Source of the DNA: a virus
Taxonomy: Duplodnaviria > Heunggongvirae > Uroviricota > Caudoviricetes
Length of the DNA: 64,000 nt
Reading direction: 5' to 3' (one strand)
IMG/VR virus record: IMGVR_UViG_3300009551_000045
Span: 19,450 to 83,449 of that record
The notes under the pieces were generated by a model that ran no database searches, was not told the origin of the DNA, and saw only the letters and a program-made list of their open reading frames with translations. Positions 48,813 to 58,250 of the stretch are shown piece by piece (position 1 is the first letter of the stretch; the number at the start of each line of letters is the position of its first letter). The position numbers and the translations under genes were made by a program.

Positions 48813-49346
48813 ATGTTAAACCTAAAAGATCTCGCAGGCAAGGTTGAAGCAAATGACATCCAGCAATCTCTAAATAAGAGATTTCCAGATCACAAATATG
48901 TGATATATAATTCATATATATTTGATTGGGAAAGTGATTATTTGTCAGTAAATGAATCTGATTACGTATATGAAGTGGAGATCAAAGTATCGCTCGATGA
49001 CTTCAAAAAAGACTCTCACAAAAAAGAAAAGCATGTACTACTGGAAAATAAATCCTATCCTGAAAAAATGCCTAATAAATTCTTTTATGCCTGTCCCCGT
49101 GGTATTATTCCAACCATCTTCGTACCGGAATATGCGGGTCTCATAGAAGTGGATAGTACGAAAGAAGGGATGGTAGCTGAGGTTACGAAGAATGCTCCGT
49201 TCCTTCATCGAGGAAACATCCTGGAATCAATTAAACCTCTTTTATTGGATAAATTCTATCACAAGTACAAAAGAACGGAATTTGAGAATTATCAGCTACA
49301 AAAGACTGTAATGATGTTACAAGAGCAAATAAAACAAATATCATAA
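48813..49346 (+). CDS. hypothetical early protein
   Basis: 177 aa; first gene of the plus-strand block. Confidence 0.45.
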   Translation: MLNLKDLAGKVEANDIQQSLNKRFPDHKYVIYNSYIFDWESDYLSVNESDYVYEVEIKVSLDDFKKDSHKKEKHVLLENKSYPEKMPNKFFYACPRGIIPTIFVPEYAGLIEVDSTKEGMVAEVTKNAPFLHRGNILESIKPLLLDKFYHKYKRTEFENYQLQKTVMMLQEQIKQIS

Positions 49347-49347
49347 T

Positions 49348-49653
49348 ATGGATTCCTTATTGAAAGAAATTACTCTCAAAAAAGTTGTTGCATATAAAGC
49401 ATATTCATCCGATGGATATGTTCACACGATAATGGGTTATTATCGTAGTTCTGCTTCTGCCGAAATAGAAGGGAAGAAACATCAGGGAGGATTTGAACGT
49501 GAAGAACTTTTTACAGATGGTTCTAAATTGTACGAAATTAAATGTGTTGCAAATTATTTTGCCGATGATATAGAAGGAGTGATACGAGAACAAATAGAAT
49601 CAATCAAAAGAAAACTTACTCCATCAGAACTTGAATTACTTGGAATAAAATAA
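49348..49653 (+). CDS. hypothetical protein
   Basis: 101 aa. Confidence 0.45.
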   Translation: MDSLLKEITLKKVVAYKAYSSDGYVHTIMGYYRSSASAEIEGKKHQGGFEREELFTDGSKLYEIKCVANYFADDIEGVIREQIESIKRKLTPSELELLGIK

Positions 49654-49659
49654 AAATAC

Positions 49660-49854
49660 ATGAAAACAATTCAGAAAGGAACAATAGTCAAGAGAACCGA
49701 CAACGAAACAGCCGATCATTTAGTTAAAAATGGCGGATATCAATTTGTACCGAAGAGTACCTGGAAAGTAATTCGTGATGCCGAAAAAGAAGTAGTGAAG
49801 AAAGACATCGTAAAAACTACTCCGCTTCGAATAAAGAAAAATAATAAGAAATGA
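49660..49854 (+). CDS. hypothetical small basic protein
   Basis: 64 aa. Confidence 0.4.
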   Translation: MKTIQKGTIVKRTDNETADHLVKNGGYQFVPKSTWKVIRDAEKEVVKKDIVKTTPLRIKKNNKK

Positions 49855-50357
49855 ACTTTAGTATTCATTTAATAGAATTTGATTATAGTTGGGATGTATT
49901 GAGCAAAATTACAAAATGGGACGAAGATACATTTGTTTTTGAAAGGCTTCATCCAAAAGAATTACGATGGACTAAAAAAGATAGAAATATCTTCTTTAAT
50001 AAAGAAAAAGGCAGAGCCGTTTGGATGATAATTAATGATGAACCAATTGCAGAAATATTATGGAATATTGCTCCAGTTGATCCACTGGATGAAATAGAAG
50101 AAAAAGATTGGCCATTGGCTCCCTATATATGGAGTACATCAGTAAAGAAGAAATATCAAGGTAAGGGATATGGAACTCTATTAAAACAAATGTTGTATAA
50201 TCATCTCAGAAATTTAGGTCATAAAGAGGTATACGGACATGCCAGGCAAGGATCCAGTTGGAATATAACAGAAAAATTAGGTGCAGAATATTTGTATGCA
50301 ATAGACAATTACGAAGGCACCGGTGAAATGTACTATTATTACAAACAAAAATTATAA
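49851..50357 (+). CDS. GNAT-family N-acetyltransferase
   Basis: KKYQGKGYGTLLKQML resembles the acetyl-CoA-binding motif A (Q/RxxGxG/A). Confidence 0.55.
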   Translation: MNFSIHLIEFDYSWDVLSKITKWDEDTFVFERLHPKELRWTKKDRNIFFNKEKGRAVWMIINDEPIAEILWNIAPVDPLDEIEEKDWPLAPYIWSTSVKKKYQGKGYGTLLKQMLYNHLRNLGHKEVYGHARQGSSWNITEKLGAEYLYAIDNYEGTGEMYYYYKQKL

Positions 50358-50359
50358 CA

Positions 50360-50551
50360 ATGCCTAAGTCAAAGAAATTAAGACCGTCTTCTACAGCTGG
50401 AAGAACCAAGGGTAGCAACTGTCAAAGATCTCAAGGAAAGAACTTATATTGTAAAGATACAATACTATACAGGAAGAATCCCGATTTGTATGCAAAATGT
50501 TGTATAGAAATAGATAATCAGAAGGGAAATCGTCAATCTACATCAAATTAA
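50360..50551 (+). CDS. small basic Cys-containing protein
   Basis: 63 aa. Confidence 0.3.
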   Translation: MPKSKKLRPSSTAGRTKGSNCQRSQGKNLYCKDTILYRKNPDLYAKCCIEIDNQKGNRQSTSN

Positions 50552-50636
50552 TAACTTATATGTCGTATTATGTTTGTGATGTTGAGGGCGACGGGCCATG
50601 TATGGATAGTATTCACTTCAGAATTACATCGATAAA

Positions 50637-50870
50637 ATGAAAAAGAGTAAATACTGTTTTCATATAGGAAGAGTAGTTCCCTTTCAATGGTATCCTACAA
50701 TTGATTTCAGATTTCAGCGATCATTCTATGATTCTAAAGGAGGTATAATGTTTTTTTGGTTGAATTTCTACATAAAGTTAAGAAGACCGGAAGATGATAG
50801 AATAATACCTACCATAGATGGAAAACCATGTTATAAACCAACATTACTAAGTAATATTTTTGGAACATGA
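50637..50870 (+). CDS. hypothetical small protein
   Basis: 77 aa. Confidence 0.3.
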   Translation: MKKSKYCFHIGRVVPFQWYPTIDFRFQRSFYDSKGGIMFFWLNFYIKLRRPEDDRIIPTIDGKPCYKPTLLSNIFGT

Positions 50871-51235
50871 CACTGGAACAAATTAAACTCATAACTGATA
50901 AAATAAAATGTCAGTTGCTTTCTACTACATTCCGGATAAGAGTGGAGCGTGACAATAAAGATCTGGGGAATGGAAGAATATTCATTCAGATGAGTTATGA
51001 TGGGTTCTGTTCTAGAACAGGAGTATTCCAGTATAACTGGCATGGTCGTAAATACTATCTTTCGGATTACATGACAGAAGATGAGATAGTAAAGACATGC
51101 TTCGCGGCTTTTAAAGCAGCGGTTGAACATGAGGTGATGGAGGGTTTTAAAATAAACGATATAACAGTTTTTAATCCACATATTGATCATAAAGAACTTT
51201 TAAAAATATCTCATATAGAGGTAAAAAGAAATTAA
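50867..51235 (+). CDS. hypothetical protein
   Basis: 122 aa. Confidence 0.45.
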   Translation: MTLEQIKLITDKIKCQLLSTTFRIRVERDNKDLGNGRIFIQMSYDGFCSRTGVFQYNWHGRKYYLSDYMTEDEIVKTCFAAFKAAVEHEVMEGFKINDITVFNPHIDHKELLKISHIEVKRN

Positions 51236-51249
51236 GTAATTTAATCCAA

Positions 51250-51987
51250 ATGAACGTTTTTTATCATAATGGTTTGTGTGGTGATATTATATATTCCTTG
51301 CCAACCGTGAAAGCTTTCGGCGGAGGTGTGTTCGTCTCGGGTCTAAAAATGAATTTATACCACGCTATGAAGCCTCTCCTATTAAAACAATCATACATTG
51401 AAAATGTATTACATATTTCTGAAACAGAATTACCTGTTGGCTTCGTAGATCTGAATATATTCAGAATGCATCCGGAAGTAGACAAAATACATTTAGTAGA
51501 TGCACATTTGGAATCATTTCGATTACCAAGATACGATTGGAGCCAGGGAGGATGGTTGGAAATACCATGCAATGATGCTGATTGGGGATTCGCTGTCATA
51601 AGTAAAACTCCTAGATATTTGGATAAAAGTTTTAATTGGAAAAAAGAAGTAAATTATCTTAGGAAATATTTTGGTGAGTATGTATACTTTATGGGTTTAC
51701 AAAATGAATATGTTGATTTTATAAAAAAATATGGACATGTACATTTGCGCAAATCTACAGATTTTTTGGAAGCGGCTCAGATTATATATAAAGCAGATAC
51801 ATTTACAGGAAATCAATCTGTAATGATGGCTATACGTCAGGGATTAGGATTACCATATCGGCTTCATCGATCACCATATATGGCAAATTGTAATCAGTGG
51901 TCGAAAAATGAAACGATTATAAATCCAGTTAGTAGGAAGATACATATACTAGGTGCAGCCGTAAAGAAAGTGATGAATAATGCGTAG
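51250..51987 (+). CDS. possible glycosyltransferase-like protein
   Basis: NGLCGDIIYSLPTVKAFGGG N-terminal pattern resembles GT9-type transferases; weak. Confidence 0.3.
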   Translation: MNVFYHNGLCGDIIYSLPTVKAFGGGVFVSGLKMNLYHAMKPLLLKQSYIENVLHISETELPVGFVDLNIFRMHPEVDKIHLVDAHLESFRLPRYDWSQGGWLEIPCNDADWGFAVISKTPRYLDKSFNWKKEVNYLRKYFGEYVYFMGLQNEYVDFIKKYGHVHLRKSTDFLEAAQIIYKADTFTGNQSVMMAIRQGLGLPYRLHRSPYMANCNQWSKNETIINPVSRKIHILGAAVKKVMNNA

Positions 51988-52834
51988 AAGAATATTCGTA
52001 TTCGGATCCAATACGGAAGGTAGACATGGTAAAGGAGCGGCTCTAGAAGCCAGGAATAAATACGGAGCGATATATGGACAGGCTAGAGGATTACAGGGAG
52101 ATTCATATGCAATAGTCACAAAAGATCTGAGTAAGGGTTTGAGAAGTATACTTCTACTGGATATAGCAAAAGAAGTTCTTGAATTTATTGAGTTCGCAAA
52201 ATTTCATCCGAATTGGGATTTTATTTTATCTCCAATAGGATGTGGAAACGCTGGATATAAACCAAGAGAAATAGCTCCACTATTTAAATACGCTCCAAGC
52301 AATGTATGGCTTCCAGATGTGTTTAAAGAGGAACTAGAAGGTGGTATTATTATGGCAGCCACCGGTCATAGGCCGGATAAGTTAGGAAAAGAGTATGATT
52401 ATGAAGGTCCATATTCAAATTATATTCTTGATAGATTCAGTGGTATATTAACAGAATATAAACCGAAGTATATCATAACCGGAATGGCAATCGGAGTAGA
52501 TACGTTGTGGGTATTATCTGCTATTATGAATAACATTCCATTCATCGCAGCTATTCCTTTCAAAGGTCAAGAACATAAATGGAAAGATCATCAGAAAGAG
52601 TTATATAAAAATATATTAGATCATCCATTGTGTATAGAAAAACAGTATATTTGTGATCCAGGATATGCTCCATGGAAGATGCAAAAAAGAAATGAATGGA
52701 TGGTAGATAGATGTGAAATATTGGTACAAGTGTGGGATGGTACAGATGGAGGGACTGCTAACTGTGTCAGATATGCAACGAAAGTTCAACGAAAAAGAAT
52801 AAATGTAGATTTAACTAAAATTCAAATATTATGA
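51980..52834 (+). CDS. two-domain Rossmann-like protein: N-terminal GSNxxGxHGxGAA domain plus C-terminal SLOG/DprA-like domain
   Basis: IFVFGSNTEGRHGKGAALEARNKYGA... in the N-terminal half; YIITGMAIGVDTLWVLSAI...IPF in the C-terminal half resembles the DprA/Smf/YpsA signature (G.A.GID..A). Confidence 0.45.
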   Translation: MRRRIFVFGSNTEGRHGKGAALEARNKYGAIYGQARGLQGDSYAIVTKDLSKGLRSILLLDIAKEVLEFIEFAKFHPNWDFILSPIGCGNAGYKPREIAPLFKYAPSNVWLPDVFKEELEGGIIMAATGHRPDKLGKEYDYEGPYSNYILDRFSGILTEYKPKYIITGMAIGVDTLWVLSAIMNNIPFIAAIPFKGQEHKWKDHQKELYKNILDHPLCIEKQYICDPGYAPWKMQKRNEWMVDRCEILVQVWDGTDGGTANCVRYATKVQRKRINVDLTKIQIL

Positions 52835-53121
52835 AAACAAAAAACAAGGTAATTTTAATCGGAGCGGTTGCACTAGGCTCTATCGGATTTTTCTCTTATA
52901 AAGCATTATCGAATAAAAATGAAGATTCAAAAATAGTAGTCATTAAAATGACAGTAGATCAGGCACAATATGTTTTAAATGCTCTTGCAGATAAACCTTA
53001 CAAAGAAGCAGCTGATCTAATCGAAAGTATAAGTTATCAAGCTAAAAGTCAATTAAATCCTCTTAAAGTAGATTCGTCTAATATAAAGAAAGATTCTACA
53101 CATAATCAAAAGAAAAAGTAA
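52831..53121 (+). CDS. small membrane-anchored protein
   Basis: 96 aa with an N-terminal TM helix. Confidence 0.4.
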   Translation: MKTKNKVILIGAVALGSIGFFSYKALSNKNEDSKIVVIKMTVDQAQYVLNALADKPYKEAADLIESISYQAKSQLNPLKVDSSNIKKDSTHNQKKK

Positions 53122-53123
53122 GC

Positions 53124-53360
53124 ATGAAACCGATAGAGTTTAAAGGATTCAATAAAATATTAGCTAAAGATCAACCACAATATCAACCTCTTCCCGTTTT
53201 ATGGGAGGCGGATGGTAGAGTAACATCTTGTTGGAAACTTTCTTTGAAGGAAAGACTTAAGGTTTTGTTCGGAGGAAAATTGTGGCTATCTCAATTGACC
53301 TTCAATCAGAAATTACAACCACAACTACCTTTGGTAGATGATCCAATTATTATAAATTAA
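53124..53360 (+). CDS. hypothetical protein
   Basis: 78 aa. Confidence 0.4.
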   Translation: MKPIEFKGFNKILAKDQPQYQPLPVLWEADGRVTSCWKLSLKERLKVLFGGKLWLSQLTFNQKLQPQLPLVDDPIIIN

Positions 53361-53373
53361 AAACAAAAATAAA

Positions 53374-53745
53374 ATGTCAGACAACATCACAAAAGCGAGG
53401 GACTTCCTCAAATCGTATTTAGAAAGAAACAACACACATCTCGGAGAACATTCTGCGGTATTAGCTTTAGCGGAATATGGAGATCAATTTGGAATAGATG
53501 ATACAGAGACGCGTAAATTAAATGATAAGATACGTGATTTGGAAGATCAAGCAACTGGTGATCTTGAAAAAATTGCAGAACTTGAAAAGAAAGTAGCAGA
53601 TCTCACTGTAGAACGTAGTGAACTTACAAAAAGATTAGTTACAGAAGGTACATCTAAACCAACAACGATTCCTACTGTTACCACGCTAGATGCGACAGCT
53701 TCGAAGGTAGAAGAACCTAAACAACCTGTATCAGGATCAAAATAA
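53374..53745 (+). CDS. hypothetical protein (predicted coiled coil)
   Basis: 123 aa. Confidence 0.45.
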   Translation: MSDNITKARDFLKSYLERNNTHLGEHSAVLALAEYGDQFGIDDTETRKLNDKIRDLEDQATGDLEKIAELEKKVADLTVERSELTKRLVTEGTSKPTTIPTVTTLDATASKVEEPKQPVSGSK

Positions 53746-53752
53746 TTAATAT

Positions 53753-53977
53753 ATGAAATTGATAGTAACAGTTCTATTTGTATTTTGTGTTATATTACTA
53801 TTATTTGGTGGTATATGTCTAGGATTTATTGGTCTTAGTCAACCGTCTATACTAGATAATATAGGTGGATTGGGAGTAATAGTAGCAATTGGGCTATTTT
53901 GTTTCATAGGTCTTAAATATTTTTTTATCACAAAAAGCAAAAACAATGACACAAACAACATCGACAGCGACAATTAG
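53753..53977 (+). CDS. small two-TM membrane protein
   Basis: 74 aa. Confidence 0.4.
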   Translation: MKLIVTVLFVFCVILLLFGGICLGFIGLSQPSILDNIGGLGVIVAIGLFCFIGLKYFFITKSKNNDTNNIDSDN

Positions 53978-54842
53978 AAATTGGGTTATAGCAGGTGTAG
54001 TAACACTAACTATGACCATTCTCCTGGCAAAAGGATGTAACAGAATCAATCCTACAGAAGTAGGATTCAAGATTAGTAACTCTGGAGATTATCGTGGAAT
54101 AGATAGCCTTCCTCTGGTTACAGGATGGCAATTTACGATGCCAGGCTTTACCTACATCGTAACGATACCAACTACTCAACAACATGTTGTATGGACAGCT
54201 TCAACTGAAGAAGGTTCTCCTTCGAACCAGGAGATTACTGTATCCTGCCAAGGCGGAGCCGGATTCAAGATGGATGTAGGATTCAACTATCGAGTTAATC
54301 CAAACAAAGCTTCGAAGATCTATTTGAAGTACCGTACAAGTGATTTAAGCTCTATTACGAGCACTTATCTTAGAAATGTGGTAAGAGGTACTATGCAGGA
54401 TCTTTCTGGCACCATGACGGTAGATAGTATCTTAAATAACCTTCCATACTATGAACACACTGTAGCAGATATGCTTACGGAACGTCTTGCGAAAGAAGGA
54501 TTCCTCGTGGATAACTTCAATATTACTAAGCAGCCTATTCCAACTGATAAGAATCTTGCTGATGCCATCAATGCCAAGATAAAGGCTAAACAAGATGCTG
54601 AAACCAGCAAAATGCAACTGCAACAATCTATTGCAGAAGCCAATAAACTTGTAGCAGTAGCTCGAGGAGATAGTGCCTCTAAGGTGATCAATGCTCTGGC
54701 AGACGCTGAAGTAATTAAGGTAAAGACACAGAGTCTGACGGCTTCGCCTCAATATATCGAGCTTGTAAAAGCAGAGAAATGGGACGGTAAGCTTCCACAG
54801 GTACAAGGTACAAGTACACCATTTATTAACTTTAAAAATTAA
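53946..54842 (+). CDS. SPFH / band-7 (prohibitin/HflKC-like) domain protein
   Basis: N-terminal TM helix, then NPTEVGFKISNSG... and a C-terminal coiled-coil region (AKIKAKQDAETSKMQLQQSIAEANKLVAVARGDSA) typical of SPFH proteins. Confidence 0.6.
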   Translation: MTQTTSTATIRNWVIAGVVTLTMTILLAKGCNRINPTEVGFKISNSGDYRGIDSLPLVTGWQFTMPGFTYIVTIPTTQQHVVWTASTEEGSPSNQEITVSCQGGAGFKMDVGFNYRVNPNKASKIYLKYRTSDLSSITSTYLRNVVRGTMQDLSGTMTVDSILNNLPYYEHTVADMLTERLAKEGFLVDNFNITKQPIPTDKNLADAINAKIKAKQDAETSKMQLQQSIAEANKLVAVARGDSASKVINALADAEVIKVKTQSLTASPQYIELVKAEKWDGKLPQVQGTSTPFINFKN

Positions 54843-54847
54843 ATATA

Positions 54848-55189
54848 ATGGTAACAACAGCAGGTCCAATTTATGAAAAAGCTAACCGTTCAAGAGTCAT
54901 AGATTCCTTCGTTGATGTAAAATCTTCATCTACAGAATATTCATTGAATAACATATCCGATAAAATCGAAGATAAAAATATCAAATTTGCAGCAATTTTG
55001 GATGAATTGGAGACACTTATTTTAAAAATGTCTACAGATAATTATCTGAATGATAAATATGATAATGGTGAAGAGAGAGAATTACGACCGGGAGGAATTC
55101 TTCATATGATTGAAGGTAGAATAGATACCTATTCACTGTTAACAGAGAGATTTTATAAGGCTAAAGAAATTTTAAAAACGCTCATCTAA
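54848..55189 (+). CDS. hypothetical protein
   Basis: 113 aa. Confidence 0.45.
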   Translation: MVTTAGPIYEKANRSRVIDSFVDVKSSSTEYSLNNISDKIEDKNIKFAAILDELETLILKMSTDNYLNDKYDNGEERELRPGGILHMIEGRIDTYSLLTERFYKAKEILKTLI

Positions 55190-55210
55190 TTACTATGCGT
55201 CTTGCTTTTT

Positions 55211-55240
55211 GCCAGGCGTGTCTACACCAGGGATTTATTT
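55211..55240 (+). terminator. GTGTCTAC-motif element plus T-rich tract (terminator-like)
   Basis: gccaggcgtgtctacaccagggatttattt shares its core with the terminators at 58468 and 61061; the stem is weaker here. Confidence 0.3.
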
Positions 55241-55254
55241 AAAAAATCATTTGT

Positions 55255-55716
55255 ATGACAGATAAAAAAGAATTTACCATGAAAAATGGGCTTATTTTGA
55301 TAGGTACTATGTTGTTTTTAACAACAGTATTTGTCATAGTCCTAAATCATTTATCGCATATTAGTAAAGAGAATTCTATACCAATAGACGATAGTATTCA
55401 GAAAGTACTGAATGATACTTTACAGATAAATGCCGGAGAGATTGGTAAGCATAAAGATACACTGTACTTTGATTCATTCACTTGTATAAATAACTACTGC
55501 AAACTATACAAAGGTAATAAAGTGGTACGAGAAATGCCCGGTGGAATATCTCCAGGGCCAAATGAAGTATTCATCTTCAAGCAGGTGACAATAGGATGGA
55601 CATGGATGCATGTGATCAATTATCCTTCTAAAGAAACAAACTTCCAGGCTACTGGATATCAAAAAGATCCAAGGAATTTAAAAGGTGGAGATACTATTAT
55701 GATAACTAATAAATAG
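55255..55716 (+). CDS. secreted or membrane-anchored protein
   Basis: 153 aa with an N-terminal TM helix or signal peptide. Confidence 0.45.
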   Translation: MTDKKEFTMKNGLILIGTMLFLTTVFVIVLNHLSHISKENSIPIDDSIQKVLNDTLQINAGEIGKHKDTLYFDSFTCINNYCKLYKGNKVVREMPGGISPGPNEVFIFKQVTIGWTWMHVINYPSKETNFQATGYQKDPRNLKGGDTIMITNK

Positions 55717-55723
55717 AATATTT

Positions 55724-56008
55724 ATGTTAAAATTTATAGCTATAATAACAGGCGTTTTTATTGTTGGAGCATTGATATTCATAACTTATAGCGTTACAAA
55801 AGATGTAAAACCACGATTAAAGACAATGTATGTCGAACAGATAGGACGTTTGGCCCAACAATTTAGATACGAACAAGATGCTGTATTTCTTTCTCAGATT
55901 ACAGATAAACAAATGCAATCAGCTATAGAAATGTACAAAAATCTTAGCGAAGCCCGTTCTAAAAGAAGCTATGCTGAAATGAAAGCAGTACTTGATAAAT
56001 ATAAATAA
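55724..56008 (+). CDS. small membrane-anchored protein
   Basis: 94 aa. Confidence 0.45.
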   Translation: MLKFIAIITGVFIVGALIFITYSVTKDVKPRLKTMYVEQIGRLAQQFRYEQDAVFLSQITDKQMQSAIEMYKNLSEARSKRSYAEMKAVLDKYK

Positions 56009-56014
56009 CAAACA

Positions 56015-56665
56015 ATGAGTGTATATAAAAGAAGTGTGCATACAGATGCATTAGCGACGTTAGGAACGCTTATCGATGATAAACCAGGGAGAGATGCCAT
56101 TCACCTGGCAGTAGAGCCTGTAATAGCCGGAGAAAGGCTTTTTCCAGGACAAGACATAGGTCTTGGAGAAGATGGCAAGGCATATGCTCATTCAGGTGTA
56201 AAGAAAGTAGGGATCGTGGATCCCTTTCTGAAAGAACCTATTTGGGAAGATAAGAGATTCTGGCTTATTGTATATCCAAGGACTATTACTAGCCTTCGAC
56301 ATGTATGGGAGCATCCTGATTTCGATAAAGAAAACGAAGATAGAGCATATGCAGAACCTCAAATAAAAAAGCCTTCTAAGAAGAAATTAAAGAATGAAGA
56401 TTTAATGGAAGAAGTCACACAGGATTCTATAGAATGGATAAAAACATTTGCCGGTAAAATAAGACAGGACTATGATGATCTTATGACTGCAGCAAACAAG
56501 TGGATAAATACAGATGATGGTAGATGGGGAGGCGAATATACCTATGATAACTCTGAAAGTTATAAAGATCATTATATTGAATTTGAAGAATTCTGGAAGC
56601 ATTATGAGATAGTCACTGGAAAGAAACCATCTGATCCAAGATGCTTTTTTACCTGTGGATGCTAA
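56015..56665 (+). CDS. hypothetical protein
   Basis: 216 aa; C-terminal CFFTCGC. Confidence 0.45.
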   Translation: MSVYKRSVHTDALATLGTLIDDKPGRDAIHLAVEPVIAGERLFPGQDIGLGEDGKAYAHSGVKKVGIVDPFLKEPIWEDKRFWLIVYPRTITSLRHVWEHPDFDKENEDRAYAEPQIKKPSKKKLKNEDLMEEVTQDSIEWIKTFAGKIRQDYDDLMTAANKWINTDDGRWGGEYTYDNSESYKDHYIEFEEFWKHYEIVTGKKPSDPRCFFTCGC

Positions 56666-56676
56666 AATATAAATAA

Positions 56677-56886
56677 ATGAAATCGATATTTTTATCAATG
56701 GCTGTAATATTTTTCGTGTGTGGTGGAATAGCTTTAGAAAATCTAGCCTTGACAAGGGATGGAGTTGTGATCCCACACTACAGACAAACAGGATGGGGAA
56801 CTTTAATATTCTGTTATATCGTAGGACTAGCATTAATTCTATACGTTTGTAAACCAATTTTAAAAGACGATGAAAAAAAGTATTAG
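56677..56886 (+). CDS. small membrane protein
   Basis: 69 aa, two TM helices. Confidence 0.4.
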   Translation: MKSIFLSMAVIFFVCGGIALENLALTRDGVVIPHYRQTGWGTLIFCYIVGLALILYVCKPILKDDEKKY

Positions 56887-57130
56887 AATATTGGTATCTC
56901 CAATCGTATTTGTGTTCGGAAGTATAATTGGAATGTTCATATTTGGATTAGGAGGGTTCATGGGTCCCTTTATTGCATTAGGATGTTGGTTAAGACCTAT
57001 ATCCGAAGATTATACCGTATTCGATAAAAGAAATGATATTAAAGATAGTCTGTGGATATTTATTTGTTGCTTTCTTATGCCGTTCTATTCGGTATATGAA
57101 TGGATAAGAGAAGGAACATTTTTAAAATAA
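56870..57130 (+). CDS. small membrane protein
   Basis: 86 aa, 2-3 TM helices. Confidence 0.4.
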   Translation: MKKSIRILVSPIVFVFGSIIGMFIFGLGGFMGPFIALGCWLRPISEDYTVFDKRNDIKDSLWIFICCFLMPFYSVYEWIREGTFLK

Positions 57131-57236
57131 AAAAGATGGAACAGAAAGAAATAATTGAAGGTAACGAAATTATAGATGCGTTCATGGGCGGATATAAGAG
57201 GGATATGGAGATTTAATATGGGATCATGCACATTAC

Positions 57237-57611
57237 ATGTCTCCGCTAGTTTGTAAATACCCTTCTGAACTTGAATACGACAAAAATTGGTCGTGGATTA
57301 TGCCAGTCCTCGAAAGAATCAATAATCTCAGAATATGGCGACAAGATAGAAAGGAGCTTTTGATGTTTTCAAAAATAGATGTAAACATAGGATTGGATGC
57401 ATATTATAGAAGAACCAGAGTGAGTATTCTTGGGAGTATCACATATTGTCAGAATGATTCCATTCCATATTCTTACAAAACAATTGAGGTTCCTCACATG
57501 GTAAAACACGGAGAATCTCCTATTGAGACTATCTGGCTGGCCGTCGTAGACTTCATCCGCTGGTACAATCAATCAACACATGAATTGGATCTTCCTGGAT
57601 ATAAGAAGTAA
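57237..57611 (+). CDS. hypothetical protein
   Basis: 124 aa. Confidence 0.4.
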   Translation: MSPLVCKYPSELEYDKNWSWIMPVLERINNLRIWRQDRKELLMFSKIDVNIGLDAYYRRTRVSILGSITYCQNDSIPYSYKTIEVPHMVKHGESPIETIWLAVVDFIRWYNQSTHELDLPGYKK

Positions 57612-57837
57612 GCAAGATACTCGCAATGTAGTATTAGCCTCTGCGACATTATACAATCGCATAAAGGAGCTTCTTACTCCAGAAGATAATATATCCTGTC
57701 CTGAACATGTCCTAGATATATATAAAAGTACCCTACTGCCTGTAACAAATAAAGATGGAGATGAGATTCATGCCGTGATTATGGACAAAGATCCCTTCAA
57801 AAATATAAATACAACTATCGATTATGATAGAAAATGA
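57580..57837 (+). CDS. hypothetical protein
   Basis: 85 aa; overlaps the upstream ORF by 32 nt, so the start is uncertain. Confidence 0.35.
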   Translation: MNWIFLDIRSKQDTRNVVLASATLYNRIKELLTPEDNISCPEHVLDIYKSTLLPVTNKDGDEIHAVIMDKDPFKNINTTIDYDRK

Positions 57838-58060
57838 TCATCAGTTAACTCGATCTGACATGATAGATATTCTTATCGATGTCTTGTATACAAAATATGT
57901 TATTTATTGTAATGATTGTGGTAAAGTGAAAACTTCCGGTATGGAAAATAAGGTACAATTCGCTATAAAATTGTATGAAGAAGGTTGGAGAGGTTATAAT
58001 TCATCTAAACATTATTGTCCTACATGTATAAAAATAAACAAAAATGACATTCAAATTTAA
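57824..58060 (+). CDS. zinc-ribbon small protein
   Basis: CNDCGK...CPTC. Confidence 0.4.
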   Translation: MIENDHQLTRSDMIDILIDVLYTKYVIYCNDCGKVKTSGMENKVQFAIKLYEEGWRGYNSSKHYCPTCIKINKNDIQI

Positions 58061-58250
58061 AGAAAATGCCAAAGACTTCTGTCAAACAGGTACTGAAGAC
58101 TTCTGGTATGCACTATTCGATGGTGGATATGTGGAAGTAGAAGGGATCCTGGCAGATGAAACACAGCTAAATGAAGTGATTAAAGCTGTACAATTACTTG
58201 AACAATTCAAAAATCAACTGGAAAATGCCGGGATATATGAGCCCTGTTAA
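58044..58250 (+). CDS. hypothetical small protein
   Basis: 68 aa. Confidence 0.4.
   Translation: MTFKFKENAKDFCQTGTEDFWYALFDGGYVEVEGILADETQLNEVIKAVQLLEQFKNQLENAGIYEPC

Follow-up and report, generated by a model that had tools for sequence, protein, structure and literature searches.

A phage-encoded fusion of a truncated macrodomain and a YpsA-type SLOG domain, a candidate ADP-ribose-handling counter-defence protein

What is the function of a two-domain protein encoded within a long array of small phage genes? The protein is encoded on the plus strand of the window (the whole 64,000-nucleotide stretch of viral DNA analysed here). An earlier note had described it as a 284-aa, two-domain, Rossmann-like (SLOG/DprA-like) product. 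The gene itself is real: the translation was confirmed, the two quoted motifs, FVFGSNTEGRHGKGAAL and TGMAIGVDTLWVLSAI, are both present in it, and the opposite strand is full of stops. The domain description held for the C half, which is a YpsA/DprA-like SLOG, and failed for the N half, which is a macrodomain and not a Rossmann/SLOG domain.

51980..52834, plus strand: macrodomain-SLOG fusion gene, a complete ORF of 284 aa plus stop (from the ORF list and translation)
51989..52339, plus strand: truncated macrodomain of the A1S_2505 or 'N4 gp14-like' family (aa 4-120), here called the mini-macro
52349..52822, plus strand: YpsA/YoqJ-clade SLOG domain (aa ~124-281), a Pfam YpsA match

Domain composition of the fusion protein

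The N half matched NCBIfam NF049995 with 134 bits (cutoff 45), and the C half matched Pfam YpsA (PF06908) with 40.7 bits, above its GA of 27.7. Because of these scores, and because full-length homologues of the fusion exist at identities from 78% down to 37%, both family matches are far beyond chance. An AF2 model of the full-length protein had a pLDDT of 96.5 and a pTM of 0.79. The same protein, identical in sequence, occurs on several metagenome contigs. By megablast the region matched none of the phage genomes searched, and a close cultured relative is therefore lacking; the source is a tailed phage, probably a myovirus of a low-GC, Bacteroidota-like host.

The mini-macro family is covered by NCBIfam NF049995 and PHROG 2072 only. 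Against Pfam Macro (PF01661) the N half had no match at E ≤ 1, a profile that PhiKZ AdfM reaches with 30 bits. Nonetheless, the N half has the three-layer alpha/beta macro fold and carries the landmarks of a macrodomain: a glycine-rich loop (FGSNxxGRHGKGAA) with Asn11, a TK motif with Lys48, and a second loop (PIGCGNAGY). Among 82 sequences, G9, S10, N11, G14, H16, G17 and G19 of loop 1 (GSNxxGxHGxGAA) are invariant, as are C88 and G92 of loop 2 (IGCGLAGY), in which I86, G87 and G89 are conserved at 90% or more. Both glycine-rich, ADP-ribose-binding loops align with their equivalents in AdfM and TARG1. N11 and K48 are invariant in the 82 stand-alone homologues and in 12 fusions; they align with AdfM N23 and K78, equivalent to DarG2 N22 and K80 (residue roles from PMC13309987), and K48 is also aligned to TARG1 K84. 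The N half is a truncated macrodomain of ~115 aa with DarG/TARG1-type residues and both ADP-ribose loops kept. The Asn/Lys pair used by DarG2 and phage AdfM for C1'' ADP-ribose hydrolysis is kept as well.

Compared with AdfM (PhiKZ gp104), a 162-aa canonical macrodomain without a SLOG, the mini-macro is missing one or more N-terminal strands as well as an internal insert; hhalign related the two with only E 1.8e-4 and a probability of 49%. A mini-macro profile run against PDB sequences reached only TARG1/OARD1 (C6orf130) and Bacteroides BT1257/Q8A8B0-type proteins, at E 0.3-0.5, which is not significant alone. In the TARG1 alignment the TK motif falls on K84 and PIGCGLAGY on PRIGCGLDRL, whereas the second catalytic residue of TARG1, Asp125, is replaced by Ala or Gly. 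PADLOC DarG models did not match the fusion protein at E ≤ 1. DarG2 ends in a DarT-binding domain, where the fusion has a YpsA SLOG instead, and we rejected a DarG2 antitoxin proper: the DarT-binding domain is missing, and Pfam matches around the gene and over ~49 kb of the phage included no darT or ART gene. The macro fold alone does not fix the substrate, because TARG1-type and Poa1p-type macrodomains act variously on protein esters, O-acetyl-ADPr or ADPR-1''-phosphate. Some mini-macro family members carry the GenBank label 'O-acetyl-ADP-ribose deacetylase 1'.

The C half shows a TGHRP first loop, a GxD motif (G172, D174), PFxGQExxW, RNxWM and GGTxNC, and it matches YpsA in structure. G172-V-D174 aligned to G-V-E of YpsA, so that the substrate-binding GxD/E motif (G53 and E55 of YpsA; defined in PMC6459960) is conserved, and G172 and D174 are invariant across the 12 fusions. 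From these sequence features we assign the C half to the YpsA clade of SLOG domains, with an intact GxD nucleotide-binding signature. After YpsA, its nearest structural relatives are the ssDNA binders ShosA (PMC11961720) and DprA. However, the match to YpsA is by far the stronger one, and the fusion has neither the SAM and winged-helix domains nor a conserved basic surface: C-domain pI values spread between 4.7 and 9.2 among the fusions, so the conserved positive charge that DNA binding would lead one to expect is lacking. The match to PF02481 (the Rossmann/SLOG core; 38 bits) was below the YpsA score.

Three familiar identities were rejected for this domain. A plain, housekeeping DprA orthologue, the outcome that the earlier note had named as its refutation, does not fit: the TIGR00732 dprA equivalog reached 15 bits where 191 are required. 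A LOG-type phosphoribohydrolase is excluded since the PGGxGTxxE motif and the catalytic Glu are absent; by eye, Cys262 of the GGTANC motif occupies the position of that Glu. YpsA proper, the Firmicutes cell-division regulator, was set aside on the phage context and on flanks with no recognisable partner gene. B. subtilis YpsA is a stand-alone, cellular protein tied to gpsB and cell division, whereas here the domain is phage-borne and fused to a macrodomain, with His (or Asn) in place of the first-loop Tyr of YpsA.

Gene neighbourhood and distribution

The fusion gene lies in a co-directional array; the positions of the array and of three nearby genes are as follows.

48813..58491, plus strand: array of ~26 tightly packed small ORFs, including the fusion gene (from the ORF layout)
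49851..50357: GNAT gene (PF00583)
51250..51987, plus strand: upstream orphan ORF of 245 aa, overlapping the start of the fusion gene by 8 nt
53946..54842: SPFH gene (PF01145)

The array ends in a terminator-like hairpin (58466-58491), the sole such site on the plus strand after 48813. Divergent from it, on the minus strand, is a structural and lysis module of terminase, portal, major head, baseplate and endolysin genes. The operon-like array is probably an early or accessory region, early expression being suggested by the gene layout; a promoter scan was uninformative (46 sites vs. 53.5 expected).

Within the array the fusion gene overlaps the ORFs on both sides. The stop of the upstream ORF falls inside the 8-nt overlap (ATGCGTAG), and a 4-nt ATGA overlap joins the fusion gene to the next ORF. 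The suggestion that the upstream ORF is a possible glycosyltransferase co-transcribed with the fusion gene survived only as to the overlap. This ORF had no family match in Pfam (E ≤ 1), PHROGs, NCBIfam, PADLOC or PDB sequences, and at the locus of the closest relative (78% identity) a 132-aa gene stands in its place; we rejected it both as a glycosyltransferase and as a functional partner. The GNAT and SPFH genes are indeed nearby, as had been noted, but a functional link was rejected: synteny is limited to the 78%-identical phage, and both are absent near the P0009, DAC16, Mx1 and Calothrix homologues. Pfam matches over ~49 kb of the phage included no recognisable DarT, ART or other NAD-related gene, and NARP1 operon genes (Adps, Namat), RNA ligase and Tpt1 were recognisable neither near the gene nor over the same ~49 kb. 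Across 80 IMG/VR loci, only scattered replication genes (DNA polymerase, RecA-like protein, ThyX, RNR) were common neighbours.

The mini-macro is widespread: 471 of 50,697 phage genomes (~1%) carry it, usually as a stand-alone protein, and it recurs in thousands of metagenomic clusters. In N4-like phages it typically sits in the left-end early region. Its repeated fusion partners are YpsA SLOG, YAcAr SLOG, DUF4326 and NADAR; two different SLOG families are joined to it, in both orders. P0242 is a single 559-aa protein of mini-macro, NADAR, DUF4326 and SLOG, and in P0242 and P0245 NADAR and DUF4326 are fused to the same mini-macro and SLOG. At L065 the mini-macro and SLOG are adjacent split genes. 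A CCA-adding enzyme and PTH2 are encoded near P0009, and tRNAs, a TROVE protein and a peptidyl-tRNA hydrolase near the DUF4326-SLOG gene of Mx1.

In the literature we found no biochemical or genetic data for the mini-macro family or for YoqJ-type phage SLOGs: A1S_2505 appears as a locus tag only, in two unrelated Acinetobacter papers, YoqJ is mentioned in YpsA papers only, and a preprint on anti-signalling in N4-like phages does not touch the mini-macro gene. The family is curated but functionally blank.

Proposed function and competing explanations

Among the major branches of bacterial defence is ADP-ribose-based immunity (DarTG, Thoeris, RES, SIR2 and TIR NADases), and phage enzymes that counter it have been demonstrated only recently (AdfN in 2025, AdfM and Adpp in 2026). 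AdfM is a stand-alone phage macrodomain shown experimentally to be a DNA de-ADP-ribosylase that, like the DarG2 macrodomain, acts on thymidine (PMC13309987), and AdfM and the NADAR protein AdfN, both DNA de-ADP-ribosylases, defeat DarTG2 and DarTG1, respectively. The architecture studied here was already predicted by Iyer, Burroughs, Anantharaman and Aravind in 2022 (Viruses 14:1977; PMC9503650), whose computational catalogue of viral ADP-ribose-processing proteins includes YpsA-like SLOGs fused to Macro, with the same network of NADAR and DUF4326 partners, in phage-borne genes typically of early or accessory regions. The present case is a confirmation and refinement, not a discovery. Their purely computational study favoured soluble signals as substrates; in our analysis DNA adducts are no less probable, given the experiments since reported on AdfM and AdfN. 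A counter-defence role, as the earlier note had proposed, is the leading literature hypothesis for such phage proteins (PMC9503650), and its view of the domains as nucleotide-ligand families agrees with their membership among binders and processors of NAD+/ADP-ribose-derived nucleotides; the cleavage of cyclic oligonucleotides (CBASS) that it also raised found no support.

The fusion protein probably works against ADP-ribose-based host immunity by undoing or intercepting it, and its candidate substrates are either DNA adducts of the DarT type or ADPr signals in solution. We consider it moderately likely that it does so as a catalytic ADP-ribosyl hydrolase. It would be a bifunctional ADP-ribose-handling protein, expressed from the long accessory-gene array, probably early in infection, that removes ADP-ribose adducts laid down by host NAD+-consuming immunity. 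The preferred substrate would be single-stranded phage DNA ADP-ribosylated by DarT2-type toxins, a more specific version that we hold only tentatively and below an even chance; the protein would then be an 'orphan antitoxin' comparable to AdfM. The SLOG would bind part of a nucleotide, which could be the adduct's adenosine or, as in DprA/ShosA, an ssDNA base, and so keep the hydrolase on its substrate. In a variant of this version, the SLOG might allosterically switch the enzyme on when ADPr-type ligands appear.

For the hydrolase we counted the invariant N11/K48, the AdfM/AdfN precedent, the NADAR/DUF4326/SLOG fusion network, the structural kinship of the C-domain with ShosA/DprA, the early-region location in N4-like phages and the accessory array here. 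Against it we counted the variable pI of the C-domain, the lack of a DarT, ART or NAD-related gene over ~49 kb, the better-known role of YpsA-clade SLOGs as small-ligand binders, and the prediction that DUF4326 is a phosphatase-like small-molecule enzyme (PMC9503650).

Some of the same observations would suit a degrader or sequestrator of diffusible NAD+-derived immune signals, such as 1''-3' or 1''-2' gcADPR (type I Thoeris), His-ADPR (type II Thoeris) and related TIR products, on which the two domains would act in series, the macro cleaving the C1''-linked group and the SLOG binding or cutting the adenine-ribose end. Iyer et al. predicted as much for viral proteins that join a YpsA-like SLOG to Macro, NADAR and DUF4326 (PMC9503650). 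Moreover, the N-glycosidic C1'' bond of His-ADPR chemically resembles the DarT2 thymine adduct, multi-enzyme fusions with the predicted phosphatase DUF4326 fit a stepwise breakdown of small molecules, paired anti-signalling modules such as Acb4-Sequestin occur in phages, and the variable pI suits a small-ligand pocket more than a DNA surface. However, none of the papers searched described a macro or SLOG enzyme capable of destroying a Thoeris signal, the anti-Thoeris proteins in them being sponges or direct inhibitors; neither half has the ThsA domains as its closest structural relatives, and the conserved Asn/Lys pair corresponds to DNA-adduct hydrolases. We regard this explanation as unlikely. 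A protein that merely binds is less probable again: one or both domains would hold ADP-ribose-type ligands, to sequester them or to regulate another phage function. Sensors are common among macro and SLOG domains (macroH2A and the ThsA domains are examples), known anti-signalling proteins are mostly sponges, and Cys262 replaces the LOG catalytic Glu; yet the strict invariance of Asn11 and Lys48 would be more easily explained by catalysis than by binding alone, and the monomer-sized protein has no obvious oligomeric sponge architecture. On balance we rate such a sponge or sensor as quite improbable, slightly below the metabolic role considered next.

The mini-macro could instead clear metabolites, as a Poa1p/Adpp-like ADPR-1''-phosphate phosphatase or an O-acyl-ADPr deacylase that removes by-products of RNA repair or RES-type NAD+ cleavage, with the SLOG processing the nucleotide further. 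Both Adpp (Vibrio phage Gary gp137) and yeast Poa1p are ADPR-1''-phosphate phosphatase macrodomains, and Adpp, a phage Poa1p-like macro, dephosphorylates ADPR-1''P and defeats the aRES defence (preprint 10.64898/2026.01.28.702374). The tRNA-repair-type genes at the P0009 and Mx1 loci point the same way, and the extra basic residues of loop 1 (R15, H16, K18) could fit an additional phosphate. In contrast, Adpp acts within a NARP1 operon (Adps, Namat), genes of which were recognisable neither near the fusion gene nor over ~49 kb of the phage, and the invariant TK-motif Lys is a hallmark of TARG1/DarG chemistry; we find this role improbable. Least probable is host manipulation modelled on B. subtilis YpsA acting with FtsZ, in which the SLOG would perturb cell division or another host process while the macro reads or erases protein ADP-ribosylation. 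TARG1 does remove Glu/Asp-ADPr from proteins. Overproduced YpsA blocks cell division in a manner that requires its GxD/E motif, and its authors raised the same idea for prophage YoqJ (PMC6459960); however, YoqJ-type proteins do not conserve the residues on which this effect of YpsA on division depends (PMC6459960), ypsA-gpsB linkage is Firmicutes-specific, and recurrent fusion to NADAR and DUF4326 indicates ADPr chemistry, not the divisome.

Returning to the hydrolase, it is doubtful, though conceivable, that the fusion represents a new type of enzymatic anti-defence protein, either a SLOG-targeted or allosterically switched DNA de-ADP-ribosylase or the first destroyer of Thoeris signals (gcADPR/His-ADPR). 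The fusion protein is a reasonable experimental candidate. Because the mini-macro combines a stripped-down macro fold, a DarG-type Asn/Lys pair and repeated fusion to SLOG, NADAR and DUF4326, it is a concrete and cheap-to-test candidate for the next family of anti-defence enzymes. If the fusion is indeed such a new enzymatic type, the stand-alone 'N4 gp14-like' mini-macro of ~1% of sequenced phages would be a major unrecognised counter-defence family. The role of phage YpsA-type SLOG domains could likewise be probed with the fusion protein, which lends itself naturally to that purpose.

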